DNA of 64,000 nt from Acidimicrobiales bacterium (GTDB lineage Bacteria; Actinomycetota; Acidimicrobiia; Acidimicrobiales; Bog-793): contig DATCDR010000036.1 in NCBI GenBank assembly GCA_036510575.1, positions 54,161 to 118,160 on the forward strand, in the 5' to 3' direction. Below the pieces are notes generated by a model, which was not told where the DNA came from, did not search any database, and worked only from the letters and a program-made list of their open reading frames with translations. Positions 4,156 to 39,777 of the stretch are shown piece after piece (the first letter of the stretch is position 1; the number at the start of each line of letters is the position of its first letter). Made by a program: the position numbers and the translations under genes.

Positions 4156-4167
4156 CTGCTCGGCAGA

Positions 4168-11904: not shown

Positions 11905-11912
11905 GCCAAGCC

Positions 11913-12998: not shown

Positions 12999-13366
12999 GG
13001 TGGCCCAGCGCAGAGGGACCCTGGCGCTCCCGAGCTGGATCAGTAAACGTCATTCGAGCGACCAACTCCTTGCCGGACGCGCGCCGAAAAAAGGGAGGCC
13101 AAAGCTGGGTCGCTTCGTCGCGAACCACGACGACCACGCCGATTGTGGGCACTGTTGACTCTCCTCATGACTCCCCTGCGGCCATCCTGTCATGCGAGTC
13201 CAACGAGATGACGACGTCAATCCACGACACTTCGGCAAGGAGAGACGGGTCCGGCTGCGACATCCTCAGCCGAGGAATACCTAAGTATCGCGTCCGCACG
13301 AGCGGGAGTACCACCTCGACAGCCGAATCAAAATAGGCTGTAACGAACTTCTCTGAAGGACGTGGC

Positions 13367-14194
13367 ATGGGAATCGTTACGTTTGGGCTACCTATTGATC
13401 TCGCACGTGAGCTCGTGCGTGCGGGCGGGCTTAGCGCTGCCGTGGAAAGCGGAACCTACCTAGGAGATAGTGCTATAGCACTTCGCGAGTTAGTTCCAAC
13501 GGTCGTAAGCATCGAGCTCCTAGATGAGCTTTATGAAAGGGCGAAACGCAACGTTGGAAATAGGGAAGGAATCGAGCTCCTAAAAGGCTATTCACCACTC
13601 GTGCTTTCAGAGATCGTAGATCAGCTACCAGGACCGACATTATTTTGGCTGGATGCACATGGGGGAACAGAAGGTGTTCCAGATCTCGATGCAGAATTCA
13701 GCGAATGTCCGCTGATGGACGAGCTCGCAGCAATTGCCAAGTCTCCCTTCGCTAACAGAAGCTGCATCGTCATCGACGACGCCCGCGCTTTTTTTGGACC
13801 CATGCTGCAACACGACCCAAGTCAGTGGCCGACGTTTTCGGAAGTGAGTGACTACCTCCGCACGATGGGCGATCGGTACGTCACCGTTCTCGACGATGTG
13901 ATCATCGCCGTTCCTTCCGATCTGCAATCGACCGTGAACGCCTGGTGGCGAACCAAACTCAGCCAGCGTCACGGCTATGAGGCACTACAAGAAAGAGTGC
14001 AGCAGCTCTCAGATCCGTCCCCGCTCGAGGCGTCCGTGCGTCTCGCTCGAAGCCTCTTGCCAGGGCGACTCCGCAACAGCGTCTCGCTCTGGCTGACGAG
14101 TCACGGCGTCAAGGCTCCAGCGGCGCGGCAGAACTACCTTGGGTCTGACCAGATCATCGGAGACGAGCAGGCGAAAGCATCGCCGCGCGGATGA
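13367..14194 (+). CDS. Putative class I SAM-dependent methyltransferase-like protein
   Basis: 275 aa, ATG start. VESGTYLGDSAIALRELVPTVVSIE resembles motif I plus an acidic loop. LFWLDAHGG and IVIDDA motifs are also present. The 5' third is visibly AT-richer than its surroundings. Confidence 0.55.
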   Translation: MGIVTFGLPIDLARELVRAGGLSAAVESGTYLGDSAIALRELVPTVVSIELLDELYERAKRNVGNREGIELLKGYSPLVLSEIVDQLPGPTLFWLDAHGGTEGVPDLDAEFSECPLMDELAAIAKSPFANRSCIVIDDARAFFGPMLQHDPSQWPTFSEVSDYLRTMGDRYVTVLDDVIIAVPSDLQSTVNAWWRTKLSQRHGYEALQERVQQLSDPSPLEASVRLARSLLPGRLRNSVSLWLTSHGVKAPAARQNYLGSDQIIGDEQAKASPRG

Positions 14195-18471: not shown

Positions 18472-20346
18472 TCAATCAGTCCGAAACTTCCACAGCACGA
18501 TCGCTTCTTGGGGGGTGTCGTCGTATTGCGCCGATGCGGTTCGGATGAAGTACTTGCCGTACGTCTTCGACCAATCTTCGGTGCAAACCGAGTCGGTGAC
18601 CATCCAGCCGATCCCCGCTGCTGCGAGCTGCGATGCCTTAAGATCCCCTTTAATTGCTGAGACCCACACTGCGTTGATCTGGTTGTGTCGATTGGGCCAG
18701 GCGAGTCCGTCACCAAAGAACGCGACTCTTGCTCCCGTCGTGGCTTTGAATGTGGTCGGTCCCACACAGAGGTCGGTAAATATCAATTGATTGTTCGTCA
18801 CCTGGTGGGCGACCGTCTTCATAGCGTCGTAGACCGGGCCGGTGTACGTGAAAGTCTGACCTTCTAGCGACCGGTAGAAGCGGAACCAGTCGATCGATGA
18901 GGCACCCATTAAGCCCACGGTGATAACTGCGAGTGAAGCAACGAGGACCCGCCACCGTGGCGGCACTCTGTTTTGTCGAGCGAGCCGAGGGGAAAGATGG
19001 AGGGAGCACACCTCCAACGCCACTGGGATAATCGTGAATGCGATCAGCGCGTAACTGTCGATCCAAAACTGATAGGGCTCCTGGTTCGTGCCCCAAGCGT
19101 CATTCGTTGTCAGAAAGAACCAGGCTGCGATCGAACCTCCTGCATAGGCCACCCAGAAAGCCCGCCGACGTACAACTCCCGCGATCAGGATCATTACAAG
19201 CGGGACGAGCAGGGGGAGCGCGCACGCGAGCCCATGCTTCCAATCAACGCCGAGTCGAGCGGTGACCGTCTGACGGAAGTTGAGAAATGGGTCTCCGGCA
19301 TGAAGGGCTTCCGACACGCTGATCAGCTGCGGCGCTGCCGCGGCAGCGAGCGCTAAGAAGGGGGCGACTATTCGCCAACGCCACTTTGCAAGGGCCATGC
19401 AGAAGCCTGGAAGTGCTGGCAGTAGGCCGATCGGGAGGGTGTTCAGCCTTCCAATGGAGTTCGCGAATGACGGTCCAACTAGGAAGACGACCGGAAAGAG
19501 GGTCGCACTCAGCGCAATGGGCCACAGGCGACGATCGACCGCGAGGTGGTAGGCCGACAGTCCGTAGATCGCGAAGAAGAGGGCGGTGAAGAAACTGTAG
19601 GTGTCGACATTTGCGAGAAGTCCGACCCCAGCACCCACGAGTACGCCAGTGGCACCGAGCCGCCGGTCGCCGTGACGGACTGCTGCGAAGAGCATTAAGA
19701 AGAGCAGGCTGATGAGCACGAGCGCTGCTGCCGTGCTGTTGAGAGGGAACATCGTGGCGAACGGGGACCACAGCAGCCCGTGCGATTTAAGAGGTTGGTA
19801 CCAGACGATGCCGTGGAAGGAGAGCGTGCCAACGAGAAATGGGAGCGCTCCGAGGCAGGCCGCCCACCATCTGCGAGATACCAGGACTGCGCCCAAGCCG
19901 ACGCCGACGACGAGGATCACCTGGAGAGACACCCCGACGAAGTTCCACACCGCCGCTGGTGGCGCGTGGGTGATATATGAGATGAAGCCCAGCGCTGTCA
20001 GGTAGAGATGCGGATCGCTGAAATGTCCGGTCTCCGTAAACGGTTCGACGGAAGCGAACCGCCCCTGTGACCCATTCACTACAGCTGCAAACAAAGTGAG
20101 TTGATCGCCTTGGAAGAATGCTCGAAAGGAACTCCAGCCCCAACCAGGTCTAATTAACATCGACAGCTGGGTCATCAGGTAAATGAACACTGAGAAACCA
20201 CAGCCGGCAATGACGCCGATTGCCCTCGCACATCGGCTGCGATGCGCACTGTCGTGCGCTGACATATGCACCTCATCGGAGACGGGGACGTGTTCGCCGC
20301 TCAAGTCCCGGCCAGTCAGGGCGTCACCAGGAGAGGTCGGCAGCAC
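18472..20346 (-). CDS. Large polytopic membrane protein with C-terminal soluble domain (GT-C-like candidate)
   Basis: 624 aa with many hydrophobic segments through about aa 470, then a soluble C-terminal domain. Early loop motif FFQGDQL. ATG at 20265 is an alternative start. Confidence 0.6.
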   Translation of the reverse strand: MLPTSPGDALTGRDLSGEHVPVSDEVHMSAHDSAHRSRCARAIGVIAGCGFSVFIYLMTQLSMLIRPGWGWSSFRAFFQGDQLTLFAAVVNGSQGRFASVEPFTETGHFSDPHLYLTALGFISYITHAPPAAVWNFVGVSLQVILVVGVGLGAVLVSRRWWAACLGALPFLVGTLSFHGIVWYQPLKSHGLLWSPFATMFPLNSTAAALVLISLLFLMLFAAVRHGDRRLGATGVLVGAGVGLLANVDTYSFFTALFFAIYGLSAYHLAVDRRLWPIALSATLFPVVFLVGPSFANSIGRLNTLPIGLLPALPGFCMALAKWRWRIVAPFLALAAAAAPQLISVSEALHAGDPFLNFRQTVTARLGVDWKHGLACALPLLVPLVMILIAGVVRRRAFWVAYAGGSIAAWFFLTTNDAWGTNQEPYQFWIDSYALIAFTIIPVALEVCSLHLSPRLARQNRVPPRWRVLVASLAVITVGLMGASSIDWFRFYRSLEGQTFTYTGPVYDAMKTVAHQVTNNQLIFTDLCVGPTTFKATTGARVAFFGDGLAWPNRHNQINAVWVSAIKGDLKASQLAAAGIGWMVTDSVCTEDWSKTYGKYFIRTASAQYDDTPQEAIVLWKFRTD

Positions 20347-20613: not shown

Positions 20614-22353
20614 CTATCCGCCGATCACGAGTGGCCCTTGTTCGAGGCGCGGACGGACCTTTTGACGCGCGACCACGGCCTGGAGCACGCCTGCGTTCAC
20701 GATTCGATACTTGATGTGAGCCTGCTTCAGCCCTGCGATAAAGATCGGCTCCGTCTCTAGATCTGGCCCGCCGACAATGTGGAATGGTGAGTCAGGCGTA
20801 ATCACGGCGGGGTTGACGAAGATCCACGCCGCTTTCGGGGAGGCCATCGCGGCGGCGTCGATGCCCGGCCATCGATCGAGATCGGATCCGATCCCCGAGG
20901 TGTCGATGACCAGCTTGCCGTCACTTAGGTAGTCGAGCTCATAGGCGACCCAGTAGTCGGCGTAGCCATACTTGATGCCCGCTGACTCAAGCGCGTCAGC
21001 CGCGGCGACTGCCGGTCCATCCGGGTTCACCCAGCTTCGACTAAATGTCGTCAATTCGACCCCGGTGAAATTGTGAAATGTATAGATCGACAGCGCGAGC
21101 CCAACCACGACGACGAGGCTCATCACAACCTCACCTCCGCGGAGCACTCGAGCCCACGACATGCCACGGAGCCGGTACCCGACCTCGTCGATACCGACAG
21201 CGATCGTCAGGGCAAAGAGCGGGCCGAGGTAGACGGCGTACCTACCGTCCGACCAGAACCCCGTACCTGGATTCTCGGAGTAGAGCACGGGGAAAAGGAG
21301 CACGCCAACGGCCAGCGCCGTTGCCCGTCCCCGTTTCCAAAGGCAGATCAGAAAGCTAAAGCCGCCGATCGAGATCGCGAGGACGGCAACGATCCACGAA
21401 AGCGTGGCACTGCTGAACCAAGCGCCCGTATAGGGCTCACGGAGCCCAAGCTGCATCGGCACGACGTAGAGGATGAAGGTATGAAAGTGAAGGTTGAGTT
21501 GCGTCCATATGGTGCCTTCCGCGCCGTTGAACGACGACACGTTCAGCGAAGCGAAATGATCTTTGACGTTGCTCCAGAGCCAGGGAAGCGCGCCGAGGAG
21601 AGCTAGCCCCAGCATCACACTCAGACGAAGCAGCCGGTCGCGGAGCCATCTGCCCTCGCGATTGCTGAGAAAGACCGCGAGGATGAGCAGCCCGGCGATC
21701 GGGTAGAAGTAGGTGATCTCCGGCATCGACCACCATCCGAGACCTACCGCGAACCCGAAGAGCGCGCAGTCAAGAAAGCCGCGCTTTATATGCAGTAGCT
21801 CTGGATAATCGAGCAGCCGAAGCGCCTCTAAGACGGCGACGAGACCACAGGCCATAGCCAGTCCCCGACCCTGGTAGATGCTCGAGGAGAAGATATTGAC
21901 CATAGGTGCGGCAAAGACAACTGCCCCAGCTAGCGCCGCAATTGCTCTCGACCGGACGAGACGAAGTGCGATCCTCCAGACAAGAACCGCTGCTGCTACC
22001 GAGAACAATGTCGGTTCGACGTGGAGCGCGAAGGTGGCGTGGCCGGCAATCGCGACCATGGCAGCAAGCGGATAGAACTCGGCACCGCCGTAGACCTGCC
22101 CGGGGTAGAAGGCCTGGAAGTGGCCGTGCAGGATTCCCTCAGCGAGCATGCCGGCGTTGGCCTCATCCGAACTGCTTGGCTGATGGAACAGCAACCAGAT
22201 CCGAATGACTGCGCCGATCGCGACTGTCACCACAACGAGCGCAGTGATCACGAATCGCCACGAGCCCGTTGCGGTCCTCCGGGCCTGGGAGAGCTCGAGG
22301 CGCGCGCCTACCTGTGGTTCGTCGATCACTTCACTACCAGGGGGATAGGTCAA
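20614..22353 (-). CDS. ArnT/PMT-like GT-C glycosyltransferase (GT39/GT83-type)
   Basis: 579 aa, polytopic. The first loop after TM1 has the acidic motif IRIWLLFHQPSSSDEANAGMLAEGILHGHF, as in polyprenyl-phosphate-sugar-dependent GT-C enzymes. Lies 34 nt downstream of the GT2 gene. Confidence 0.7.
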   Translation of the reverse strand: MTYPPGSEVIDEPQVGARLELSQARRTATGSWRFVITALVVVTVAIGAVIRIWLLFHQPSSSDEANAGMLAEGILHGHFQAFYPGQVYGGAEFYPLAAMVAIAGHATFALHVEPTLFSVAAAVLVWRIALRLVRSRAIAALAGAVVFAAPMVNIFSSSIYQGRGLAMACGLVAVLEALRLLDYPELLHIKRGFLDCALFGFAVGLGWWSMPEITYFYPIAGLLILAVFLSNREGRWLRDRLLRLSVMLGLALLGALPWLWSNVKDHFASLNVSSFNGAEGTIWTQLNLHFHTFILYVVPMQLGLREPYTGAWFSSATLSWIVAVLAISIGGFSFLICLWKRGRATALAVGVLLFPVLYSENPGTGFWSDGRYAVYLGPLFALTIAVGIDEVGYRLRGMSWARVLRGGEVVMSLVVVVGLALSIYTFHNFTGVELTTFSRSWVNPDGPAVAAADALESAGIKYGYADYWVAYELDYLSDGKLVIDTSGIGSDLDRWPGIDAAAMASPKAAWIFVNPAVITPDSPFHIVGGPDLETEPIFIAGLKQAHIKYRIVNAGVLQAVVARQKVRPRLEQGPLVIGG

Positions 22354-22387
22354 GCTGCGGAATCGCCTGTCACATCCGGCCCCGACG

Positions 22388-23086
22388 TCACTGCAGCTTG
22401 GAGAAGCGGAACCTCACCAGCGCGATAAGCGCACCGAAGCCGTCACGCCACGTGATCTTCTTCCCTTCCGACACCTCGCGCCCCGCGTAGGAGATCGGGA
22501 CCTCATAGATGCGATACCCACGACGCAGTACTTTCGCGGTGATCTCCGGTTCAAAGTCGAACTTGTTGGAAACGATGGTGAGCCCATCCAACACGCGTCG
22601 GTCAAAGACCTTGTAACAGGTCTCCACATCCGAAAGCGTCGTTTGGTAGAGAAGATTCGTCACGAGCGACAAGAACCGGTTGCCAAGCCAATGGAGCAGC
22701 AACATGTTCTTCCGCTCCCCGGTAAATCGGCTTCCGTAAACGACCACCGCCCGGTGTCGAAAGAAAGGTGCGAGCAGCTTCGGCCAATCCTCAGGGTCGT
22801 ACTCGAGGTCCGCGTCTTGGATGAGCAGCAGATCGCCGGTCGCCCGCGACAACCCAGTCCGGATTGCGGCGCCCTTCCCACGATTCCTCTCGTGCGTGAC
22901 CACCTGCACCGTCGAGTCGACGAGGACCTTCAGCACTTTCTCTGTGCCGTCGGTGGATCCGTCGTCGACGACGATCACGTCGATGACGAGCCCCACGTCT
23001 ACTGATCGAATTCGTCGCAGGATCTCTGCGACGGTGTTCCGTTCGTTGTACACCGGAACGATCACCGTCAGCGTCTTGTAGTCCAT
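22388..23086 (-). CDS. GT2 polyprenol-phosphate glycosyltransferase (DPM1/ArnC-like, soluble type)
   Basis: From ATG at 23086 (MDYKTLTVIVPVYNERNTVAEIL...VIVVDDGSTDGT...LLIQDADLEYDPED...). The track's longer start (23170) would run into the uxs 3' end. Confidence 0.8.
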   Translation of the reverse strand: MDYKTLTVIVPVYNERNTVAEILRRIRSVDVGLVIDVIVVDDGSTDGTEKVLKVLVDSTVQVVTHERNRGKGAAIRTGLSRATGDLLLIQDADLEYDPEDWPKLLAPFFRHRAVVVYGSRFTGERKNMLLLHWLGNRFLSLVTNLLYQTTLSDVETCYKVFDRRVLDGLTIVSNKFDFEPEITAKVLRRGYRIYEVPISYAGREVSEGKKITWRDGFGALIALVRFRFSKLQ

Positions 23087-23126
23087 ATCCTCGAGAGAGG
23101 CCAATTGCAAACCAGTTCTCCGTTCT

Positions 23127-24056
23127 CTAGACCAACGACGCGAAGTACTCGACCGTACGCGTGAGCCCAACCTTCAGCTCGATCTCCGGCTCCCATCCCA
23201 ATCCGGTGCGGGCGAGGGTGATGTCAGGGCATCGGCGCACAGGGTCCTGCTCGGGAAGCGGCGCGTACGTGATCCCCGAGCCCGAGCCGACGATCTCTTG
23301 GACAACATGGGCGATCTGTAACACCGTGCGCTCGTCGGGATTGCCGAGGTTCACAGGTCCGGTTATCTCGCTATCGAGTAGCGCAATCAGCCCGCGAACC
23401 TCGTCATCGACGTAACAGAGCGACCTTGTTTGTGAGCCGTCCCCGTACACCGTGAGAGGTCGGTCCTCGAGGGCTTGGACGATGAAGTTCGAGACGACCC
23501 TGCCGTCGCCCGGACTGAGCCTCGGGCCATACGTGTTGAAAAGGCGCGCAATAGCCACATCGGTGCCTTTCGCCCGGTGGTAGGCCATCGTCAAAGTCTC
23601 CGCGAATCGCTTGGCCTCGTCGTAGACACTCCGTGGTCCGATCGTGTCGACGTTGCCCCGGTAGTCCTCCCGCTGGGGATGGACGGTCGGGTCCCCGTAG
23701 ATCTCACTCGTCGAGGCCAACAAGTATCGTGCGCCGTCCTCCGAGGCGATGTCGAGAAGCTGGCGCGTCCCGTCACTGCCCGCGGCCATCGTCTCGAGTG
23801 GGTGCAGAAGATAAGCGGGCGGCGAGGCTGGAGAGGCAAAGTTCAGCACTGCATCAAATGGGCGCTCGACGTGAAATGGTCTGCTCACGTCGGCGATCAC
23901 GACGGACATGCGAGGGTCCGCCTCAAGATGCGAGAGGTTCGATCGACGCCCCGTCGAGAGATTGTCCAACGCCACGACCGAGTCGCCGCGTGCTAGAAGT
24001 TGTTCGCAGATGTGAGAGCCGAGGAAACCCGCGCCGCCGGCGACGAGAACCCTCAC
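23127..24056 (-). CDS. uxs: UDP-glucuronate decarboxylase (UDP-xylose synthase)
   Basis: 309 aa, colinear with UXS along its whole length. Motifs: GGAGFLGSH, NFASPASPP, ASTSEIYGDP, YDEAKR, FNTYGPR, DGRVVSNFIVQAL, YGDGSQTRS, PVNLGNP. Confidence 0.9.
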   Translation of the reverse strand: MRVLVAGGAGFLGSHICEQLLARGDSVVALDNLSTGRRSNLSHLEADPRMSVVIADVSRPFHVERPFDAVLNFASPASPPAYLLHPLETMAAGSDGTRQLLDIASEDGARYLLASTSEIYGDPTVHPQREDYRGNVDTIGPRSVYDEAKRFAETLTMAYHRAKGTDVAIARLFNTYGPRLSPGDGRVVSNFIVQALEDRPLTVYGDGSQTRSLCYVDDEVRGLIALLDSEITGPVNLGNPDERTVLQIAHVVQEIVGSGSGITYAPLPEQDPVRRCPDITLARTGLGWEPEIELKVGLTRTVEYFASLV

Positions 24057-25393
24057 GGGCGCCCGATACCGGAGTACGCAAACCCCGCTGCTCGAAGCGC
24101 TATCGGATCCAGCAGGTTCCGAGCATCGACGATCGCAGGAGTCGTCATGAGCTCCCCAACCTTGTCGAAGTCGATGTTCCGGAACTCATCCCACTCAGTC
24201 AAGATGGCGACGACCCGGGCTCCGGCACAGGCGTCGTAGGGGCTCGAGAAGAGCTCAACCCCTTCAAGGTCCTCTGCATTCGAGCCCGTCGCGACGGTCG
24301 GGTCGTACGCTCGAAGCACCGCTCCTTCAGCTCGCAGGCGACGGGCGATGTTGACCGCCGGAGAGTCGCGACGATCGTCGGTGTTGGCCTTGAAGGTCAG
24401 GCCCCAGAGCGCGACGTCAGCTCGCCCGAGCGAGCCACCCGCAGCGATCCGAATCTTTTCCACCACTCGGTTGGCGTGGTCGTCATTTTGGGCAATAACG
24501 GCGCGAAGCACCGCGAAGTCGTAATCGAACGACTCGGCGATTCGGACAAGTGCGGCGGTGTCTTTCGGAAGGCATGATCCGCCCCATCCTGGACCAGGGC
24601 TCAGAAAGTCGAAGCCGATCCGCTTGTCATACCCAAGAGCGATGATGAGATCACGCACGTCGGCGCCTGCTGCATCGCAGAGGGTCGCAATCGAATTAAT
24701 GAAACTCAACTTCGTTGCAAGAAAGGCATTCGCTGCGTACTTGATGGTCTCAGCCGTTATCGGAGAGGTGACGATCAGCGGAGCATTCGTCGAATCGAAG
24801 AGCTCCGCGACGCGCCGGGCAACTAACGGATCATCGACACCGACCACGATCCGATCAGGGTGCAGGCTGTCAGCTACTGCCGAGCCCTCGCGGAGGAACT
24901 CAGGATTCGAGACGACCGTCACGTCGGGACGCTCGAGCATCCCTGCAACCAGCACCGAGGTGCCTGCCGGCACTGTCGACTTGATCACGACCACCGCGTC
25001 ACGAACAAGCAGCGCGCCGATCTCGTCGATCACCACTTTCACCGCCGAAAGGTCGGCAGAGCCGTCGTCGCCTTGCGGCGTGGGGACACAGAGGAAGATG
25101 AAGTCCGCCTCAGGAATCGCATCCACCGCGGAGTTGACGACACGAAGCTTGCCCGAGCCCAATCCAGCCCGGAGCAGCTCTTCGAGATCCCGCTCAACGA
25201 TGGGAGACTTCCCGCTCGAGAGCTGCGCGTAACGAAGGAGATTCGACTCCGCGAGGACGACGGCGTGGCCGAAATGCGCCAACACGGCCGCGGTGACGGC
25301 CCCGACATAGCCAGCTCCAATGACCGCAACTCGCTCGGACCGGCCCACGTGCTCTCCTTCGCTCAGTCGTCTCGACAACCTTACAGTTGGCAT
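24053..25393 (-). CDS. ugd: UDP-glucose 6-dehydrogenase
   Basis: 446 aa. VAVIGAGYVGAVTAAVLA Rossmann motif and GGSCLPKD catalytic-Cys motif. Its stop overlaps the uxs start by 4 nt. Confidence 0.9.
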   Translation of the reverse strand: MPTVRLSRRLSEGEHVGRSERVAVIGAGYVGAVTAAVLAHFGHAVVLAESNLLRYAQLSSGKSPIVERDLEELLRAGLGSGKLRVVNSAVDAIPEADFIFLCVPTPQGDDGSADLSAVKVVIDEIGALLVRDAVVVIKSTVPAGTSVLVAGMLERPDVTVVSNPEFLREGSAVADSLHPDRIVVGVDDPLVARRVAELFDSTNAPLIVTSPITAETIKYAANAFLATKLSFINSIATLCDAAGADVRDLIIALGYDKRIGFDFLSPGPGWGGSCLPKDTAALVRIAESFDYDFAVLRAVIAQNDDHANRVVEKIRIAAGGSLGRADVALWGLTFKANTDDRRDSPAVNIARRLRAEGAVLRAYDPTVATGSNAEDLEGVELFSSPYDACAGARVVAILTEWDEFRNIDFDKVGELMTTPAIVDARNLLDPIALRAAGFAYSGIGRP

Positions 25394-25511
25394 GAGATTC
25401 TCTCGTTGAGCCTCGCCCTGATATTTCCCACGTGTCTAGTGGCGATTCGCTCCAAGGCCTCGGCAATCGTCACACCTGTTCGGTACTGCTCTGTCGGAGA
25501 AACAGGGGCCT

Positions 25512-27203
25512 TTGGCCACTGCCGCGTACGCTTCTCGAGTCAAGTCGCGGTCAGGATGCGGCTGCGGAGGAGGGACGGGCATCAACCGGCGGACGCAGTA
25601 TCTCATCGCCATCGCTCTCGCCATCTTCCCGATCGTGTATGGACTGTTCGGTCTCCATCTCGGCCAGGACATCGGCTTTGACACCTTGAACTATCACTAC
25701 TTCGGTCCGTACTGGCTGCTCACCAACCATCTCCACGACTTTGTACCCGCTCAAGAGCAGACGTACCTCAGTCCCTTGCTAAACGTCCCGACCTATCTCC
25801 TCCAACGCTCGATCTCGGCCCGAGAGGCGTCGTTCCTGATAGCGGCCGCGGAGGGCACGGCTATCGTCCCGCTTTATTTCATTGCCCGGCGGGTCACCTC
25901 GAATCGAGGTGTAGCCCTAGTTGTTGCAGTCCTCGGACTGTTCAGCGCAATCGCCTGGTCAGAGATCGGGACCTCGTTCGGCGACAACTTGGTAGCCATT
26001 CCCTTGATCACCTCGATAGCCCTCGTTGGGCGCTTTCACGCGACGACCGATCGCGACAAGGGGCCTGGCCGGTGGTTGCTTGTCGCTGCGGGTCTGGCGA
26101 GCGGAATAGGCGCGGGACTCAAGCTAGCCGAGGTACCGATCGCGCTTGGCTTCCTCGTCGCAATTCCGTTTCTCGACGACAGCTCTCGCGCACGAATCAC
26201 AGGATCACTGAAGTATCTGGCTGGCGCCATCCTCGGCGCAGGAATCGCCTACGGCTACTGGGCCTACGAGCTGATCTCACGCTTTGGTGGGAATCCCTTC
26301 CTCCCGTTCTTCAACAACATCTTTCACTCGCAGTTCGCCCCGATATCGAAGAACACCGACAACCGATTCCTGCCGCACGGCTTCCTGGAGTTCGTCTTCT
26401 ATCCGATCGTGTGGACCCTGCATCCGCATCACTCCGAAGAGGTGGGCTTTCGTGAACTGACGCTTCCGATCTGCGAGGTACTCCTCTTTCTCGCCGTCGC
26501 GACCAGGCTCTACCGGCTGGCGCGGACCAGGGAGTGGCAGCCGCTCTTCGCCAGTGGACTCGAGCGCTTTATCGTCATCGGATCAGTTGCGAGCATCCTG
26601 ATCTGGGCAGACGTCTTTGGCATCTACCGCTACATCACGGTTATCGAGATGCTCGGGTTCGTCCTGATTTGGATCCTCACGAAATCGGTCCTCGCTGGCC
26701 TCTCCCCTGTCTCGGTCAACATCCGGGCATTCGCCACGGTGATCGTGCTGCTCTTCATCCTCTGCGTCGCGACCGAGCAACCCGCCAACTTCGGGCGGTC
26801 AGGCTTTGCGGCCAAGTACTTCACGGTTTCTGTGCCGAAGCCGCTTCGGAGCGCGAACAACACCTTGTTGATGCTCGGCACAGAGCCCTACGGCTATGTC
26901 ATTCCATTCCTGCCACCGAGCACCGACGTCATACGGCTCCAGGGGAGCTTGGTCCCAACGGAGTACACGAATGCGCTGATCGCGGATCGGTTGAAGCGGG
27001 CGGCGTCCGTCTACATCATCTGGATGAGCGTGCAAAGGCGAGCTCAGTTTCTCCGCGACAATGCCTTCGAGTGGACCAACTTCGGATTTGGACTGGCGAC
27101 CACGTCGTGTTCTGCGTTCAAAACCGAGCGCGGTGACGAACGCGCGTACGTGCGCTACTGCCGGCTCGTGCCCGAGAGCGTCGCACCGGCGGCGCCCAGG
27201 TGA
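25512..27203 (+). CDS. Polytopic membrane protein, GT-C-like, paralog A
   Basis: 563 aa. Shares GQD[IV]x[FY]D[TS]LNYHxY, [ND]VPTYLLQ, GAGLK[LF]A[EQ]xPI and [IY]YRY[IL] motifs with the 28318-30132 product. TTG start, uncertain. Confidence 0.65.
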   Translation: MATAAYASRVKSRSGCGCGGGTGINRRTQYLIAIALAIFPIVYGLFGLHLGQDIGFDTLNYHYFGPYWLLTNHLHDFVPAQEQTYLSPLLNVPTYLLQRSISAREASFLIAAAEGTAIVPLYFIARRVTSNRGVALVVAVLGLFSAIAWSEIGTSFGDNLVAIPLITSIALVGRFHATTDRDKGPGRWLLVAAGLASGIGAGLKLAEVPIALGFLVAIPFLDDSSRARITGSLKYLAGAILGAGIAYGYWAYELISRFGGNPFLPFFNNIFHSQFAPISKNTDNRFLPHGFLEFVFYPIVWTLHPHHSEEVGFRELTLPICEVLLFLAVATRLYRLARTREWQPLFASGLERFIVIGSVASILIWADVFGIYRYITVIEMLGFVLIWILTKSVLAGLSPVSVNIRAFATVIVLLFILCVATEQPANFGRSGFAAKYFTVSVPKPLRSANNTLLMLGTEPYGYVIPFLPPSTDVIRLQGSLVPTEYTNALIADRLKRAASVYIIWMSVQRRAQFLRDNAFEWTNFGFGLATTSCSAFKTERGDERAYVRYCRLVPESVAPAAPR

Positions 27204-27339
27204 CAGCCGAGATCACGCTCACGACTACCACGAATGCTTGGAGTCCGCCAGTAGCATCGGCGCAGTCCAAGGCCGTGCTTTTCGTTTCTCGGGAGATGTT
27301 GCCAGCCGTATTCACCAACTGCAGCGGGAAGGTCGAGGA

Positions 27340-28062
27340 GTGAGCGATAGCGCAGGGGTCTCCGGCGAGCAGGGCCTGCAGACCGACGTACTCGACGAGC
27401 TTACCGCGGCTGTGAATTATCGGAACGTCCTCGCAGGGCTCAGCCTGCCATGGCTCGGCGAGCACGCTGTCGAGATCGGCTCAGGCAACGGCGACTACGC
27501 GAGCTCCTGGGTGGAAAAGGGCCAGCGGCTCACCGTCACCGAGGCGCTTGAATCTCGCCTGTCGACACTGCGAGAGCGATTCGAGGACAATCCGCTGATC
27601 GATGTGGCGGAGATTCGGCTGCCCTCTGAGATGGAGGCTACCTATTCCGCCGCGATCGCCTACAACGTGCTCGAACACATCGAAGACGACGTCGCCGCCC
27701 TGGCCTCGATGCGACGACTCGTCCGCGTCGGTGGCTACGTTGCAGTCATCGTTCCCGCATTCGAAATAGGGATGAGCGATTTCGACCGAAAGATCGGACA
27801 CTTTCGCAGGTACCGGACGAGCATGGTCGCCGAGCGAATGCGAGCTGCCGGTCTCGAACCGGTGTCGGTCCGCTACATCAACTTCGTCGGCCTCGTGATG
27901 TGGGTGCTGCTCGTTAGATGCCTGCACCAACCGCCTCGCAACTCTGCAGCACTGCGCCTCTACGATCGCTTCGTCGTGCCCGTCGTCGCGGCGCTTGAGT
28001 CCAAGGTCAGCTTCCCGTTCGGCCAGTCCGTCTTTGCTGTCGGTCAACGAGTAGGCGACTAG
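27340..28062 (+). CDS. Class I SAM-dependent methyltransferase
   Basis: VEIGSGNGDYASSW motif I, YNVLEHIEDD and VRVGGYVAVIVP. The track ORF (27061) overlaps the preceding gene, so I chose the in-frame GTG at 27340. The start is uncertain. Confidence 0.7.
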   Translation: MSDSAGVSGEQGLQTDVLDELTAAVNYRNVLAGLSLPWLGEHAVEIGSGNGDYASSWVEKGQRLTVTEALESRLSTLRERFEDNPLIDVAEIRLPSEMEATYSAAIAYNVLEHIEDDVAALASMRRLVRVGGYVAVIVPAFEIGMSDFDRKIGHFRRYRTSMVAERMRAAGLEPVSVRYINFVGLVMWVLLVRCLHQPPRNSAALRLYDRFVVPVVAALESKVSFPFGQSVFAVGQRVGD

Positions 28063-28317
28063 GGCGAAGTGCCTGGTGAAGCAGTCTGACGCCTCAGCTC
28101 ACCCGTGCTGGTTGAGTAAGCTCACCAGCCGAGGATGCGACGAATGCCATTGCGCGAGGACCCGGCCGATCAAGCTCGCCCGAAATGACCGACGTGGGAG
28201 AGATGACCTTTCTGGCTCGTAGGCCATGGTTGGCGCAGCCGCGATCTCAGGTGAGTGGTCTCTTCTCTCGACTCACCATGATCTCGTCGACAGGGTTGAC
28301 CCACACCTCGATCAACA

Positions 28318-30132
28318 TTGGCTAAGGCCTTTCGCATCACTAAAGACGGTGCGCTCGCGGAGTGGACTCGCACCGCTACCTGGGTCTGTTACTACCTGGC
28401 GATGATCGGGCTACCCATCGGCTGCGGGCTAAAGGCCGTAGCCATCGGCCAGGACGTCAATTACGACTCGCTGAATTACCACATCTATGACGCCTGGGCC
28501 TTCTTGAACGGCAGAACTTTCTCCGACTTGTTCCCTGCCGGCTCACAGACCCTCATCGACCCACTCATCGACGTGCCGACCTATCTGCTCCAGGCACACG
28601 CTTCGCCCCACGTCGCGGCCTTCACGATCGGCTTCGAGCAGGGTCTCGGTCCCGTTCTCACGATGGTCATCGTCTGTCGAATGCTGAAATCGCCGATACT
28701 GGCCGTGCTCGCCGGGCTAACCGCTGCCATCGCTGGTGGATTCGCCTCCGAACTCGGCAACGACATGGGTGACTCACTTCTGGCCCCGGTCTTCGCGCTC
28801 GCCGTGCTCTTTGCCTTCAATGCCATCCGCAGCACTCACTCGCCAGCCCATGTCGCAAGCGGGGCGAAACAGCGCTGGAGGCGCACCTGGCAACGGCTGA
28901 GACCTGAGTATCGGTGGTGGCTCGCCAGTGGGCTCGCTGCGGGAGCAGGTGGTGGCCTCAAGTTCGCACAGCTTCCGATAACAATCGGCGTCATCATCGG
29001 AGCTGCAGTCGTTGTCGGCTCCGTTCGGCTTCGCGTGTCGCGGCTCCTCTTTAGCAGTCTTGGCGGGCTCGTCGGCCTCGCGTTGACCGCCGGGCAGTGG
29101 ACCATCGAACTCTGGCAGCACTACGGAGACCCATTCGCGTTCATCGGTGGACCACTCGCCGGTTTCGCGGACCCCTACTTCGTCCAGGCAGCACCCACTG
29201 CAGCGGGAGCGGGGGGTCCGCTTCCTTTCCGAGTCGTCCAGACGCTCTGGTCGCCGGTGACGGCGTTCTTCCGCCCATTGGAGTTCTCCGAGCTTCCCGT
29301 GAAAGAGGCATCGCTCGCGGTCGCGACAGCGATGCTTTTTCTACTGGTGATCGTTGCGGTCATCACAGCTGTAGCCCTCGTCGTGCGGCGCGGGCGACCC
29401 CGACGGGGCAACTCTCGAAGCGTTGCGGCCACCGCCGTTGATGGCGCAACCGCTGACTTTGACTGGCTGATGATCTGCGTGCTCGTCGTGAGCGTGCTGA
29501 TCTGGGCCCATTATCTCGACATCTACCGGTACCTGATCCCACTCGAGGTCCTCGCCCCGGTCCTCGTCATCGCCCTCTTCCGACGCTTCACCGCTTTCGT
29601 CCGCTCGCCTCGACAACGAGCGCTGCTTCTGTCGCGAGCCCTCCCGATCTTTTTCATCGTTGTCAGCGTCTTCTCGATCGTGACCTCGGCGCCGTCTGGC
29701 TACTGGGACCGTGCACCATTTGGCGCGACATGGTCGTCGCTCACGACTCCGAAGATGCTGCAGAACGGCAAGACCAACATCCTCGTAGGGTTGAGCTCGC
29801 CGGGGTCACCATCGGCGTTCATGTTGACGCTGCTGAAGGGTCACTTCATCGCCGTCGGCGGATTATCGGGCGAGAGCTCTACCGACATGTTGACGCCGAC
29901 CACGATCAAGCTGGTCGACGCGACCTTCACCAAGGTTCGAAAAGACGGCGGCAGCGTCATCGGCTACTGGCGAAACGCTCCAACCGCCGAAGGCGCACTC
30001 AACCTCGTGAATGCAATAGATCCTTACAAAGAGCGGATGGGAACCTGTGTCAGTGAGTACATGACCGTCGCTTCCTACCTCCAGATCGTCACCTTCTGCC
30101 AATTCGTCCCGGCACAGGCGAGTAAGCGGTAG
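28318..30132 (+). CDS. Polytopic membrane protein, GT-C-like, paralog B
   Basis: 604 aa. Has the same motif set as 25512-27203 (see above), a central Arg-rich cytoplasmic loop and a C-terminal soluble domain. Confidence 0.65.
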   Translation: MAKAFRITKDGALAEWTRTATWVCYYLAMIGLPIGCGLKAVAIGQDVNYDSLNYHIYDAWAFLNGRTFSDLFPAGSQTLIDPLIDVPTYLLQAHASPHVAAFTIGFEQGLGPVLTMVIVCRMLKSPILAVLAGLTAAIAGGFASELGNDMGDSLLAPVFALAVLFAFNAIRSTHSPAHVASGAKQRWRRTWQRLRPEYRWWLASGLAAGAGGGLKFAQLPITIGVIIGAAVVVGSVRLRVSRLLFSSLGGLVGLALTAGQWTIELWQHYGDPFAFIGGPLAGFADPYFVQAAPTAAGAGGPLPFRVVQTLWSPVTAFFRPLEFSELPVKEASLAVATAMLFLLVIVAVITAVALVVRRGRPRRGNSRSVAATAVDGATADFDWLMICVLVVSVLIWAHYLDIYRYLIPLEVLAPVLVIALFRRFTAFVRSPRQRALLLSRALPIFFIVVSVFSIVTSAPSGYWDRAPFGATWSSLTTPKMLQNGKTNILVGLSSPGSPSAFMLTLLKGHFIAVGGLSGESSTDMLTPTTIKLVDATFTKVRKDGGSVIGYWRNAPTAEGALNLVNAIDPYKERMGTCVSEYMTVASYLQIVTFCQFVPAQASKR

Positions 30133-30201
30133 CCATCGAACTACGCCGTACGTCGGTCGTGACAACGGGCCAGCGCTCGAGCGCCATAGAACCAGCGGAA
30201 C

Positions 30202-31677
30202 ATGACGGAGGAGCAGCGCCGATCTCCGAGGTGCGTGGAAGACCTCGACACCACTCGGCCAGTACGATTGGCTCTGATACCTGGGCCGATTGTCTGGCTC
30301 CGCACCGCATTCAAGGAGACGATCGTGGCGGGTTCGAGTGCGTACTGGTTGGAGGCCGAGGCGAACGCCGAGGTTGGGTTTCCGCCCAGCGGACGGGTCT
30401 TTCGGCGGGGTCTCGGCAAGCTCATGTGGCCGTTCCTTAGCCATCAGGTCGCCGTCAATCGGGCGCTACTTGCCGAACTGGATGTCGTTCGCCAGCGCCT
30501 CGACCAAGCCGAGCAGCGACTGGATCGAGCCGACGGCGACCTCGCGCACCACACCGAAGTCCTCGTAAGGCACGAGGAGCCACTCGACCGATACGGACTG
30601 CACCTCACCTTGCTGCAAAAAAACGTCGAAGAACTCGGGAAGACGTTCGAGTCGGTGGCGGGCGAGCTGTGGACGAGCCGTGACATAGCGAGCACCGCAC
30701 TTCAAGAGACGCGGGCGCTCGCGCCGTCGGTAGAGGAGCTGATGCTGATACCCGGTGAGCTCCGCCAGATCGAGCAGCAGGCCTTCGCTCGATTCCACGA
30801 TGCGATGTCCGCGATGCGAACCGAGTTCGGTGACGTGAGCCAGTTGATCGAGGAGCGCTTCGAGGACTTCAAACGCCTCGAGATCGGGGTGCAGGACGCA
30901 CGCGGACGGCTCGTCGCGATCGAGATGCTCTTGAGCACGATCCGTCGGGGGTTGCCATCGGAACCATCCGCGCGCGAACTACCGACGACTCCTGGCACCG
31001 CGGATCTGATGTATGTCGGGCTAGAAGAGCTGATGCGTGGTCCGAGGGAGACGATCATGGCGCGCCTGACGGGCTATCTCGATGAGATCGCTGCACAGAA
31101 GAGTCGCGGGCCGGTCCTCGACGTCGGATCAGGCCGCGGCGAATGGCTGGCGATGCTGAAGGAAGCAGGCGCCGACGCGTACGGGGTCGAGATTGAGATG
31201 GCCTACGTCACTGGGGCACGCGAGCGCGGACTCGACGTCCGACACGAGGATCTACTCCCACATATCCGGTCCCTCAAGGACGCGTCACTTCGGGCGATCA
31301 CGGCGTTTCACGTCGTGGAGCATCTCCCGACCGAGTTGTTGCTGGAGTTCTTGAACGAGTCGCTCCGCGTGCTCGAACCCAACGGCCTGCTCATCTTGGA
31401 GACGCCAAACCCGGAAAACCTGATAGTTGCGGCATGCACCTTCTACCTCGACCCGACGCACCTGCACCCGCTACCGCCCTTGCTGCTCGAGTTTTTCGTG
31501 CGCTCCCGCGGCTTCGGGGAAACGCGCATCGAGTTCAAGAACCCGGCGATCGCGGCGCAGATCGCGATGCCGTCGTCGGCGAATCCTTGGTACAAAGAAG
31601 TTGCACCGATCGTCAATACCTTGAATGAGCGCTTCTTCGGCAGTCAGGACTACGCCGTGATCGCCCGCCGCTCTTGA
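30202..31677 (+). CDS. Coiled-coil + C-terminal class I SAM methyltransferase (module A)
   Basis: 491 aa. About aa 80-250 is heptad-like and charged (NRALLAELDVVRQRLDQAEQRLDRADGDL...). Methyltransferase motif I VLDVGSGRGEW lies at about aa 305-315, followed by FHVVEHLP and LILETPNPENL...FYLDPTHLHPLP. Paralog of 50726-52114. Confidence 0.8.
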   Translation: MTEEQRRSPRCVEDLDTTRPVRLALIPGPIVWLRTAFKETIVAGSSAYWLEAEANAEVGFPPSGRVFRRGLGKLMWPFLSHQVAVNRALLAELDVVRQRLDQAEQRLDRADGDLAHHTEVLVRHEEPLDRYGLHLTLLQKNVEELGKTFESVAGELWTSRDIASTALQETRALAPSVEELMLIPGELRQIEQQAFARFHDAMSAMRTEFGDVSQLIEERFEDFKRLEIGVQDARGRLVAIEMLLSTIRRGLPSEPSARELPTTPGTADLMYVGLEELMRGPRETIMARLTGYLDEIAAQKSRGPVLDVGSGRGEWLAMLKEAGADAYGVEIEMAYVTGARERGLDVRHEDLLPHIRSLKDASLRAITAFHVVEHLPTELLLEFLNESLRVLEPNGLLILETPNPENLIVAACTFYLDPTHLHPLPPLLLEFFVRSRGFGETRIEFKNPAIAAQIAMPSSANPWYKEVAPIVNTLNERFFGSQDYAVIARRS

Positions 31678-36903: not shown

Positions 36904-37437
36904 TCAATGCGGTGGCCAGCTCGGCGCTCCCCGATCACGCTCCGAGATAACCGTCACCTCTAGCGGCCATTCGATTCCGACGGTGGGATCGTCCCAACGA
37001 AGCGACCGGGCGCTTTTTGCGACGTACGGCACGCTGATGAGGTACGTCATCATGCTCGCGTCCCGAAGAGTCTGGTAGCCGTGAGCGACGCCTCGTGGGA
37101 CATGTAGGGCGACTGGCTCACTCGCTAACAGGCGAACTCCAAGCCACTTGCCGTACGTCGGCTCACCTGGACGAAGGTCGACGAGAACATCGAACACCGC
37201 TCCGGCGTGGCACCAAAGCGTCTTCGCCTCGGCGTTCGGTTCGACTTGATAGTGCATACCCCGCACGGTGCCGGACCGGTCGTTCGTCACTATCGAGACC
37301 TGACACACTTCGGCCTCGACGCCGAAGGAACGCAGGAGGTCGAAATCCACCACGCGCCGAAAATCTCCCCGCTCGTCGCTGTGGAATTCAGTAGTTATGA
37401 GATAGACGCCGCGAAAGTCGAGCGCCTCCGCGTTCAC
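36904..37437 (-). CDS. NDP-4-dehydro-6-deoxyhexose 3,5-epimerase-like cupin (RmlC family)
   Basis: 177 aa. DERGDFRR...VRGMHYQ...KTLWCHAGAVFDVLVDLRPGEPTYGKW...HVPRGVAHGYQTL...WDDPTVGIEWP. Confidence 0.85.
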   Translation of the reverse strand: MNAEALDFRGVYLITTEFHSDERGDFRRVVDFDLLRSFGVEAEVCQVSIVTNDRSGTVRGMHYQVEPNAEAKTLWCHAGAVFDVLVDLRPGEPTYGKWLGVRLLASEPVALHVPRGVAHGYQTLRDASMMTYLISVPYVAKSARSLRWDDPTVGIEWPLEVTVISERDRGAPSWPPH

Positions 37438-38684
37438 GGCCCACCAATAACGGTCATCGCTGGGACAGCGAGCCAGCTGCGAGCGTCGGGCGTCAAGCGT
37501 TCAATGATCGCCGCGATCTCTGGTGCAATGTTCCAAGGCAGGACCAGGACGTCGCTTGGATCCGCGCCGGCGAGCTCGTCGGGAGGTACGACGCGGATGT
37601 GGCTTCCGGGAAGATACTTCCCCTGCTTCTCGATGCTTCCATCGGCGCAGAGGAGCACCTGGTCAGCAGTGACTCCAGCGGCATTGAGCAGCGTGTTCCC
37701 CTTCGCGGCGGCGCCGTAGGCCGCGACTCGGTCTCCTGCTGCTGAGCGCTCGAGCAACCAGGTTGCCAATCCTTCCACTGTGGAATGGCTTCGCTTTGCG
37801 AAATCGGTCCACAAGTCGGGCGACAAGAGCCCCGCCGTCGCTTCGTGGGCTATGGCGCGCGCGACGGAACCGTCGTCATGACCCTTTCCTTTCGGAATGA
37901 TCCAGTAGCGGTAGGAGCCGCCGTGGGTGGGGAGCTCCTCCACTCGGACGAGCTCGAGTCCGAGTGGGGCGACGGCTCGCCGTACCGCGTGCGCCGAAAG
38001 GTACGAGAAGTGCTCATGGTAGATCGTGTCGAATTGGGTCTTCTGGAGCAGGTTGAGGAACGACGGGTTTTCCACCGTGATGAGTGTCTCTGGGCCGGCG
38101 AGCGCGGCGAGCCCTGCAATGAAATCGTGCAGGTCTGGAACATGGGCCATCACGTTGTTTGCCGCGATGAGTTTCGGATGGCCGACTTCGGAGGCGATCT
38201 CGGCCCCGACATCTGCTCCGAGAAAGACCGACCTCGTGTCAATGCCGTCGGCTCGCGCGATTTCGGCGACATTGTCCGCCGGCTCGATACCAAGGGTCCG
38301 GACCCCCAGTTGCTGGAAGCAGCGAAGGAGATAACCGTCGTTGCTCGCGACCTCGACCACGAACGAGGAGTCGTCGAGCCCGAGCTCGCCGGTCATCCGC
38401 TCGGCGAACGACTGTGCATGGGCGACCCACGAGGTGGAGACCGACGATAGGTAGGGGTAATCGTTCTGAAAAATGCGTTCCGGCAGGACGAATTCGCCGA
38501 TCTGACCCAGTCCACACTCCGAACACACTGAGAGATGAAGGGGGAAGCACTCCTCTGGGGCATCGGCTGACAGCAGAAACTCGTTCGAGATCGGTTGCTC
38601 GCCGAGGTCGAGCACTGAGGTCAACGACTCCGACCCACATCCTCTGCAAACCCGGATTCCTCGATTCGTCAACGATTCACGCAT
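37434..38684 (-). CDS. NDP-hexose C-methyltransferase (TylCIII-like: zinc-binding N-domain + SAM MTase + C-methyltransferase C-domain)
   Basis: From ATG at 38684 (MRESLTNRGIRVCRGCGSESLTSVLDLGEQPISNEF...LSVCSECGLGQI...DYPYLSSVSTSWVAHAQSF...VVEVASNDGYLL). It overlaps the rfbG stop by 8 nt and the downstream epimerase start by 4 nt. Confidence 0.8.
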   Translation of the reverse strand: MRESLTNRGIRVCRGCGSESLTSVLDLGEQPISNEFLLSADAPEECFPLHLSVCSECGLGQIGEFVLPERIFQNDYPYLSSVSTSWVAHAQSFAERMTGELGLDDSSFVVEVASNDGYLLRCFQQLGVRTLGIEPADNVAEIARADGIDTRSVFLGADVGAEIASEVGHPKLIAANNVMAHVPDLHDFIAGLAALAGPETLITVENPSFLNLLQKTQFDTIYHEHFSYLSAHAVRRAVAPLGLELVRVEELPTHGGSYRYWIIPKGKGHDDGSVARAIAHEATAGLLSPDLWTDFAKRSHSTVEGLATWLLERSAAGDRVAAYGAAAKGNTLLNAAGVTADQVLLCADGSIEKQGKYLPGSHIRVVPPDELAGADPSDVLVLPWNIAPEIAAIIERLTPDARSWLAVPAMTVIGGP

Positions 38685-39777
38685 GTTCACGACTACGCCT
38701 TTCCACCTGAAACCTGTACTCGTCGAGTTGCTCGCCAGTGAGCTCAGATGCCGACTTACCGGATTGAACTCCCATATACCAGGACAACGTGAGCTCGACT
38801 GCCTCTTGCCAGTCGAGCACGCCTGACCAACCAAGGTCCCGCATGGCAAGCGTGGAATCGAGGGTCAAGGTTGCCATTTCGTGGTAGGTCGGTTCAGCCG
38901 TGGCCACCCACGGCTGCTCGGGGAGGCTGCCGCCAAGGTCGGTCCAGACCTTTGCCGCAAGTGTGACGATGTCTTGCACGGGAGCGGCGTCTAATTCAGT
39001 CGGTCCGAAGTTGTACGACTTCGAGACCTGGAGGTCGGTGGCGAGTGACTCGGCGAACACCAAGTAGCCGCGGAGCGGTTCAAGCACGTGTTGCCATGGC
39101 CGTACTCCTGCCGGGTTCCGAAGAACAAGCGTCTCGTCCGCCGACCAAGCACGAACCAAGTCGGGCAACAGACGGTCGAGTGACCAGTCCCCTCCGCCGA
39201 TGACATTGCCTGCGCGAGCGGTCCCTAGCCGAGTGCCAGTCGAGGGCCAGGCGGCGACCACGAGTTCGGCGGCTGCCTTGCTGGCGGCATACGGATCGAG
39301 ACCCCCAAGAAAACTTTGCTCAGAGAACGGCGTGGACTGTCGCGGGTCGTACACCTTGTCGGTGGTGATGACGAGACAGGCGATGACGCTAGGTGTCTCG
39401 CAAGCGAACCGAACAACGTCGGCAGTGCCTTGGATATTGGAACGAAAGGTGCGATACGGATCGCTGTAGCCGACCACGACGAGCGACTGGGCAGCGAGAT
39501 GAAGCACAACTTCGGGCGCCAACTCCGCTGCTGCTTGCTGCCAAAGCTCGGAGGTAATCTCGCCCCGCAGATCATGCACCCGAGCGAGACCCAGCTGCTC
39601 CCATAACGACGGCGTCGTGGGAGGTTCGGGAAGCGAGAGACCGATCACCTCAGCGCCAATAGCATCTAGCCAATACGCCAGCCACGAACCTTTGAATCCC
39701 GTGTGCCCGGTCAGCAGGACCCGACGACCTCGCCAGAACGTCGGATCCGGAAGATGCTGGCGCGACTCTCCACTCAC
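38677..39777 (-). CDS. rfbG: CDP-glucose 4,6-dehydratase
   Basis: FWRGRRVLLTGHTGFKGSWLAYWL, TTDKVY and YAASKAAAE motifs. I chose the GTG at 39777, which forms a GTGA overlap with the rfbF stop. The track start (39858) lies inside rfbF. Confidence 0.88.
   Translation of the reverse strand: MSGESRQHLPDPTFWRGRRVLLTGHTGFKGSWLAYWLDAIGAEVIGLSLPEPPTTPSLWEQLGLARVHDLRGEITSELWQQAAAELAPEVVLHLAAQSLVVVGYSDPYRTFRSNIQGTADVVRFACETPSVIACLVITTDKVYDPRQSTPFSEQSFLGGLDPYAASKAAAELVVAAWPSTGTRLGTARAGNVIGGGDWSLDRLLPDLVRAWSADETLVLRNPAGVRPWQHVLEPLRGYLVFAESLATDLQVSKSYNFGPTELDAAPVQDIVTLAAKVWTDLGGSLPEQPWVATAEPTYHEMATLTLDSTLAMRDLGWSGVLDWQEAVELTLSWYMGVQSGKSASELTGEQLDEYRFQVERRSREHA

Follow-up and report, generated by a model that had tools for sequence, protein, structure and literature searches.

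What do two related membrane proteins do that are encoded on either side of a methyltransferase gene and that match no curated protein family? The question is raised by contig DATCDR010000036.1 of an Acidimicrobiales bacterium, of which we have analyzed a stretch of 64,000 nucleotides (the window). A first-pass annotation had described the products of the two genes, open reading frames (ORFs) A and B, as paralogous membrane proteins resembling type C glycosyltransferases (GT-C) that it could assign to no named family and that might carry out two related transfer steps with a lipid-linked donor made by enzymes encoded next door. Our analysis indicates, with good if not complete confidence, that A and B are anciently diverged paralogues of a large unnamed GT-C family that most likely transfers single sugars at the outer membrane face from a polyprenyl-monophosphate-sugar to a cell-envelope glycan. 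Enzymes of the GT-C class decorate exported bacterial surface glycans and shape antigenicity, phage receptors and envelope properties.

The bounds and lengths of both genes are as originally annotated, the gene that separates them does encode a methyltransferase dependent on S-adenosylmethionine (SAM), and A runs divergently from the ugd-uxs operon, as had been claimed, with a gap of 118 bp (Table 1). The supposed paralogy with colinear motifs likewise held up once a pairwise alignment had been run, with BLASTP returning E=4e-31 over 476 colinear residues at 27% identity and with a Smith-Waterman score of 404 as compared to 49.5±8.9 (z=39.8) for controls shuffled inside 20-residue windows, so that the pattern of hydrophobic, transmembrane (TM) segments survives. 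All six motifs that had been singled out occur in identical order, starting at residues 51, 91, 150, 157, 200 and 371 of A and at residues 44, 85, 144, 151, 211 and 402 of B, with two of the proposed patterns slightly off: the first motif in A is GQDIGFDTLNYHYF, ending NYHYF, and B has GGGLKFAQLPI where GAGLK had been given. The N-terminus conserved among homologues favors TTG 28318 as the start of B; ATG 28402 is an alternative that would yield 576 residues and from which B may have been annotated elsewhere. Promoter and terminator scans of positions 25300-30400 gave site counts no higher than those in shuffled sequence.

In a neighbor-joining tree with 201 leaves the B-type proteins form a clade of their own (15 of 15 sequences) whose nearest outsiders are A-type, and the ancestor of A and B covers 45 of the leaves. 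On these grounds B is an old, fast-diverged paralogue inside an Acidimicrobiia-centered branch and not a recent tandem copy. In B the loop that follows TM7, otherwise conserved as G-N-P-x2-P-F-F-N in the family, has A in place of P265 and G in place of N268, a change that suggests a different acceptor or donor (or linkage). Duplication recurs in the family, since a related locus (L084) carries B-type paralogues of 613 and 619 residues in direct tandem (10001-13860) in another glycan cluster. Three further membrane proteins of the window, of 579, 624 and 627 residues, were considered as additional paralogues and rejected, with similarity neither to A and B nor to one another.

AlphaFold2 models calculated with the family alignment have a predicted local distance difference test (pLDDT) score of 91.8 and a predicted template modeling (pTM) score of 0.91 for A and values of 84.4 and 0.86 for B. 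In each model a long TM1 is followed by a loop containing short helices (residues 56-100 in A and 49-94 in B), by ten more long helices and by a C-terminal region of strands and helices. In Foldseek comparisons with the PDB the top 25 matches of A and the top 17 of B are all GT-C enzymes, those of A comprising DPY19, AglB, Pmt4, ArnT, AftB, ALG12, AftA, PimE, STT3, AftD and Emb and those of B ALG9, STT3, AftD, ALG3, ArnT, DPY19, PglB and PimE, with transporters appearing solely at probabilities below 0.2. Models and searches together support a GT-C fold for both proteins, much as the first-pass annotation had supposed.

The same annotation had drawn attention to the acidic motif after TM1, and this motif proved to be almost invariant when conservation was counted over 201 family members (A numbering), with G51 in 185, D53 in 190, N60 in 187, Y61 in 196, H62 in 197 and D57 in all 197 of the ungapped members. 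Elsewhere G198, K204, W250, P262, W365 and R373 are each found in 201 of 201, and D76 (193), P88 (198), G153 (196), D158 (192, with Glu in 7 more), Y374 (197) and E379 (192) come close, as do two Cys residues of the C-terminal domain, C533 (189) and C550 (190, ∼94%). B retains every near-invariant residue, including D46, D50, D70, D152, K215, R404, Y405, C577 and C594. A and B both have a basic N-terminus and an acidic first loop and, with the N-terminus inside, the model helices put all conserved motifs in outward loops or at outer helix ends and the C-terminal domain outside. Counts of Lys plus Arg in the short loops are 10 on the inner and 2 on the outer side for B and an uninformative 6 and 6 for A. 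We infer from the models that the acidic loop, along with D53, D57, D76, D158, K204 and R373, lies on the outer membrane face, and the conserved Cys pair fits an extracytoplasmic location of the C-terminal domain.

A search of 1.84 billion representative proteins with the family profile returned 6,563 clusters (formed at 50% identity) with E≤1e-3 and 2,735 with E≤1e-30, the matches spanning the full length and being mostly 510-650 residues long. The thousands of members are spread over Acidimicrobiia, Alpha-, Beta- and Deltaproteobacteria and Marinimicrobia; among genomes, the closest relatives of A come from metagenome-assembled genomes (MAGs) of Acidimicrobiales and Acidimicrobiaceae, and cultured carriers include Niveispirillum, Nitrospirillum, Azospirillum sp. 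B4 and Polaromonas JS666. The family is defined by G-Q-D-x3-D-x2-N-Y-H, D76, S-E-x-G...G-D, G-L-K, Y-R-Y-x4-E and the C-terminal Cys pair. Its members are called "hypothetical protein" in the source databases, and likewise by RefSeq on Polaromonas and Bartonella plasmids, because the family has neither a curated model nor a name. A and B give no match at E≤0.1 in Pfam-A or NCBIfam (matches of B to DUF3780 and dystroglycan, far under the cutoffs, were dismissed as chance) and none among PDB sequences, even with a 33-sequence profile, and most members are without a Pfam match.

In order to compare genomic neighborhoods we used 80 loci with relatives, 19 of them from Acidimicrobiia and 61 from elsewhere (Rhizomicrobium, Niveispirillum, Nitrospirillum, Azospirillum, Rhodospirillaceae, Massilia, Desulfobulbaceae, Marinimicrobia and others), counting a downstream GT2 if its identity to the enzyme of Niveispirillum irakense was 50% or more. 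Outside Acidimicrobiia a GtrB-like GT2 lies directly downstream on the same strand in 53 of the 61 loci and GtrA comes next in 45; the order GT-C, GT2, GtrA is Pfam-confirmed in N. irakense, and two family representatives carry an N-terminal GtrA fusion. Adjacency and fusions are a signature of three-component extracytoplasmic glycosylation, an established scheme in which a GT2 attaches a sugar to polyprenyl phosphate, the product is flipped by GtrA and a GT-C enzyme transfers the sugar (reviewed in PMC11127046 and PMC8035078). By analogy, this coupling indicates that the family would use a polyprenyl-phosphate-sugar donor. The cassette, although highly conserved, has been overlooked because its GT-C members are annotated as hypothetical. 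On plasmid 2 of Polaromonas sp. JS666 (L085, NC_007950.1 185983-197368) RefSeq annotates, in this order, a methyltransferase, a hypothetical protein that matches A with E=2e-47, a glycosyltransferase and a GtrA family protein. This cassette directly follows pilV and other type IV pilus genes on what is a conjugative plasmid, a setting that hints at glycosylation of the pilin or the pilus tip.

In the mechanism that we propose, A and B would act at the outer face of the cytoplasmic membrane and move one sugar from a polyprenyl-monophosphate-sugar donor to a cell-envelope glycan that would itself be built by the surrounding glycan locus of ∼35 kb. The near-invariant, outward-facing residues would form the active site, with D53 and D57 serving as catalytic base or metal site, D76 and D158 as further acidic ligands, and K204, R373 and Y374 binding the donor phosphate.

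Several observations weigh against this reading. The template modeling scores (TM-scores) of A and B relative to solved GT-C enzymes are just 0.26-0.46, and the topology derives from hydropathy, charge and the AlphaFold2 models rather than from a dedicated predictor. The GtrB/GtrA cassette is seen in 0 of the 19 Acidimicrobiia loci, the 64-kb window contains no GtrA match and no ORF of 70-220 residues with three or more TM segments, and close homologues of A are also found in non-glycan contexts. Others bear on a donor shared with the neighboring operon, which already has a PMT_2/ArnT-type GT-C of its own: a second lipid-sugar synthase in the window (8851-10083) is an alternative donor source, B is absent from a related locus (L086) that has A, and there is no ugd or uxs within 10 kb of the B-type cluster of L084.

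Table 1. Genes of the window that bear on the function of A and B (functions as predicted).
Feature	Position	Strand	Properties
ORF A	25512-27203	+	563 residues; modeled GT-C fold, unnamed family, 11 TM helices, predicted extracytoplasmic C-terminal beta-rich domain
Class I SAM-dependent methyltransferase	27340-28062	+	240 residues from GTG 27340; Methyltransf_11/12 matches
ORF B	28318-30132	+	604 residues; divergent paralogue of A, same modeled fold and conserved residues
491-residue protein	30202-31677	+	N-terminal coiled-coil-like region (weak Leu_zip, residues 118-247), C-terminal methyltransferase domain
ugd, UDP-glucose 6-dehydrogenase	24053-25393	-	Three UDPG_MGDP_dh domains, E down to 5e-49
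uxs, UDP-xylose synthase (UDP-glucuronate decarboxylase)	23127-24056	-	Human UXS1 match over full length, E=1.5e-100
Soluble GT2, polyprenyl-phosphate glycosyltransferase type	22388-23170	-	Glycos_transf_2, E=5e-34; ORF overlaps uxs stop codon
ArnT/PMT_2-like GT-C	20614-22353	-	579 residues; PF13231 present in homologues, which go by the names GT39 or ArnT-like
624-residue polytopic membrane protein	18472-20346	-	Without family assignment
627-residue polytopic membrane protein	14270-16153	+	Faint PTPS_related and DUF6541 matches; 43% identical orthologue beside B-type pair of L084
Second polyprenyl-phosphate-type GT2	8851-10083	+	410 residues; GT2 domain, four C-terminal TM helices (segments within 238-367)
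Polysacc_synt_3 gene (MOP flippase-like)	10390-11904		Follows the GT2 at 8851-10083
Sugar C-methyltransferase	37434-38849		Adjoins dTDP-4-dehydrorhamnose 3,5-epimerase (36904-37437)

Which donor might be used can be approached through the operon divergent from A, in which ugd, uxs, the soluble GT2 and the 579-residue GT-C (20614-25393) form one co-directional unit on the minus strand. Judged by its matches, uxs is a genuine UDP-xylose synthase, with ArnA matched at just ∼1e-20. The soluble GT2 has AglJ, PpgS and ArnC as its best NCBIfam matches and ArnC (1e-19), Dol-P-Man synthase (8e-18) and GtrB (1e-10) as its best PDB matches; we place it in the polyprenyl-phosphate glycosyltransferase class because it is closest to ArnC, Dol-P-Man synthase, AglJ and PpgS, and it is a candidate synthase of a lipid-linked pentose. 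A database copy 100% identical to the 579-residue product is listed as a hypothetical protein of an Acidimicrobiales MAG. As a whole the unit resembles an Arn-type pathway, one that would deliver xylose rather than 4-amino-4-deoxy-L-arabinose (Ara4N). Literature searches returned no description of polyprenyl-phosphate-xylose in bacteria.

The block made up of the PMT_2-like GT-C, GT2, uxs and ugd and, on the other side, A and its methyltransferase is kept in related loci L081, where A is 70% identical, and L086, where A is 54% identical and where the block has been relocated relative to one comprising GT4-GT2-GT4, a GT2 with four TM helices and a flippase-like gene. A more distant Acidimicrobiaceae locus (L010) has one family member, with ugd-uxs-GT2 located 5 kb upstream of it. 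The xylose unit occupies positions 4979-9778 of L086, 2-2802 of L081 and 93-3009 of L010. Because the block is intact in both L081 and L086 despite the relocation, and because of the proximity in L010, gene order speaks for a functional link of A and its methyltransferase to the xylose module. Apparent ugd and uxs genes in a proteobacterial locus (L070) are generic relatives of 28-30% identity and were not counted.

The methyltransferase between A and B shares 68-78% identity with its orthologues in L081 and L086, stands after the A orthologue in every case and may methylate the sugar transferred by A or the acceptor. Its reading frame is open from 27061 (333 residues), a start that would overlap A; the start at GTG 27340 is favored by a Shine-Dalgarno-like GGAAGG..GAGGA and by orthologues of 240 and 239 residues in L081 and L086. 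A methyltransferase was considered as a general partner of the family and rejected, having been seen solely in the lineage of the window and on one Polaromonas plasmid, and the enzymes from these two settings share generic similarity only.

The earlier suggestion that one donor made next door serves two transfer steps thus survives in part. It gains from the block being kept with A through rearrangement and loses from B being absent in L086 and from B-type genes occurring without ugd and uxs in L084; in view of the latter genes, the operon's own GT-C and the second lipid-sugar synthase we regard a shared donor as plausible for A and as no more than a possibility for B. For A the best candidate would be polyprenyl-phosphate-xylose produced by ugd, uxs and the ArnC-like GT2. 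A wider proposal, which we put forward tentatively and with considerable doubt, is that this lipid-linked pentopyranose serves three GT-C enzymes from two unrelated families, the PMT_2-like protein, A and perhaps B, which would use it to xylosylate an envelope glycan of Acidimicrobiia, possibly as O-methyl-xylose.

That A and/or B use some other lipid-linked donor, either the product of the GT2 at 8851-10083 or a housekeeping polyprenyl-phosphate hexose, and that the PMT_2-like GT-C consumes the product of ugd-uxs-GT2, is a real possibility, although we would place it short of an even chance. The position of the PMT_2-like gene, after ugd-uxs-GT2 and co-directional with it, is exactly that of ArnT after the Arn genes, the second GT2 is closer to the GtrB-like GT2 of the cassette (30% identity, E=6e-25) than is the soluble GT2 (E=9e-18), and a 66% identical orthologue of the second GT2 lies beside the B-type pair of L084. 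However, A and its methyltransferase stay with the ugd module through rearrangement, and L010 also has ugd-uxs-GT2 near a family member. There is moreover precedent for one donor serving several GT-C enzymes, namely RgtE, which serves RgtA-D in Rhizobium.

The preferred reading, an unnamed family that draws on polyprenyl-monophosphate-sugars, must also be weighed against membership in a family that does have a name. The claim that A and B fall in no named family stands insofar as no curated model matches either protein; the accompanying remark that they are not obviously of the DUF2029/PimE type does not hold in full, since two homologues and the family consensus pass the GT87 threshold. GT87 (PF09594) is matched at E≤0.1 by 4 of 33 aligned homologues, two of which, P0026 and P0028, lie above its gathering score (40 and 39 bits as compared to 25), some other homologues have sub-threshold matches to PMT_2 or GT87, and the majority consensus of the 201 members reaches 28.4 bits (cutoff 25). 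A and B could on this account be divergent GT87 members, that is, polyprenyl-phosphate-mannose-dependent mannosyltransferases of the PimE/DUF2029 type, and PimE is indeed among the fold matches, but we consider this unlikely. The proteins themselves give no GT87 match, and PMT_2 is the better match of the consensus (32.4 bits, cutoff 26.1). PimE ranks just 11th for A and 13th for B (TMq 0.26-0.30), behind DPY19, oligosaccharyltransferase, PMT, ArnT, Aft and ALG enzymes; solved PimE is not matched in sequence even by profile (a GT87-positive homologue also found nothing real among PDB sequences), and its chain of 383 residues is without a C-terminal beta-rich domain. Because the consensus passes both thresholds about equally, the family is best placed, as far as sequence can tell, as a separate branch of the GT-C clan between GT87 and PMT_2 and as a clear member of neither.

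We think it improbable that A and B form an obligate heterodimer with one regulatory partner, in the manner of Pmt1-Pmt2 or EmbA-EmbB. The genes are adjacent and co-oriented, the pair is conserved in L081, and some solved GT-C enzymes function as paralogue pairs; nevertheless, L086 and 80 genome loci have A but not B, B-type proteins occur without A-type ones in L084, and B has kept all of the invariant residues. That the two proteins are not glycosyltransferases but GT-C lookalikes (a transporter, polymerase or ligase), as the modest TM-scores might be taken to mean, is very improbable given that the leading fold matches are GT-C enzymes throughout, with transporters far down, that the acidic loop after TM1 is conserved, that the family is tightly coupled to GtrB and GtrA and that its consensus matches both PMT_2 and GT87.

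The glycan locus has further features of note. It is unusually rich in methyltransferases, with at least eight between 4438 and 38849, including those that start at 4438, 16423, 17443, 27340, 30202, 33125 and 37434, and together with the epimerase gene beside the last of them these suggest a heavily methylated deoxy-sugar glycan. The stop codon of the 491-residue protein gene overlaps the start of a GT4 gene; the putative product may be a chain-terminating or length-controlling methyltransferase. The 624- and 627-residue membrane proteins, the first of which is, like B, missing from L086, may be further GT-C-like enzymes. The B-type cluster of L084 is of different content, with FdtA, DegT and acetyltransferase genes and a DUF2079 protein. 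Flanking the glycan locus, genes for SufB, a RodZ-like protein, an HhH-GPD glycosylase and a methyltransferase are common to the window (420-5328) and L086 (134-4936); the much greater size and the rearrangement of the locus in the window suggest a hot spot for the gain of glycan genes.

If the wider proposal on xylose is correct, the A/B family would merit a glycosyltransferase family of its own. The Arn-like operon next to A gives a lead, open to testing, to a new lipid-linked donor. Definition of the family would improve annotation, and the cultured carriers offer a route to its sugar and acceptor. A large unnamed family in a well-known enzyme class extends a known mechanism, overturns nothing and will come as no surprise to specialists.

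How do A and B compare with systems that are already known? With GT87, one of the two nearest curated families, they share an Asp-bearing first outer loop; in contrast to GT87 they have no match to its model, and their family has the extra C-terminal beta-rich domain with its Cys pair and exceeds the solved PimE chain by ∼150 residues. The other nearest family, ArnT/PMT_2 (PF13231; GT83/GT39-like), is approached through the consensus score and through ArnT as a fold match, and the logic of the Arn pathway recurs in the neighboring ugd, decarboxylase, GT2 and GT-C genes; A and B nonetheless lack a match to it, and the true PMT_2-type enzyme of the locus is the separate 579-residue protein.

A further comparison is with GT136, represented by ORF12 of Citrobacter youngae (Kelly et al. 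2024), which has 11 TM helices, with a small helical domain behind TM1 and a C-terminal domain rich in beta structure (PMC11127046). Set beside that description, A and B resemble GT136 in this layout, in how an Asp-x-x-(E/N)-Tyr motif is spaced behind TM1 and in an Arg-Tyr pair late in the membrane domain. GT136 systems employ a phosphoribosyl pyrophosphate (PRPP)-dependent polyprenyl-phosphoribose synthase and a MATE or SMR flippase instead of a GT2 (PMC11127046), whereas the partners of the A/B family are GT2 enzymes and GtrA, and no such synthase was found among the scanned ORFs of the window. A tblastn search with A of a plasmid collection that includes NZ_CP032687.1, listed as carrying a GT136-type system (PMC11127046), gave no match at E≤1, the GT136-type gene of that plasmid not having been located.

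Finally, Gtr-type three-component systems have in common with A and B the GT-C fold, the placement of the family gene directly upstream of a GtrB-like GT2 and GtrA outside Acidimicrobiia, and, in the window, polyprenyl-phosphate GT2s nearby (22388-23170 and 8851-10083). They differ in that the window is without GtrA, that the GT2 nearest to A and B is soluble, ArnC- and Dol-P-Man synthase-like and on the opposite strand, and that A and B have no detectable sequence kinship to the named Gtr-type families in Pfam and NCBIfam. By analogy, then, the A/B pair, while not a demonstrable member of GT87 or PMT_2/ArnT, appears to work like the GT-C component of Gtr-type systems.

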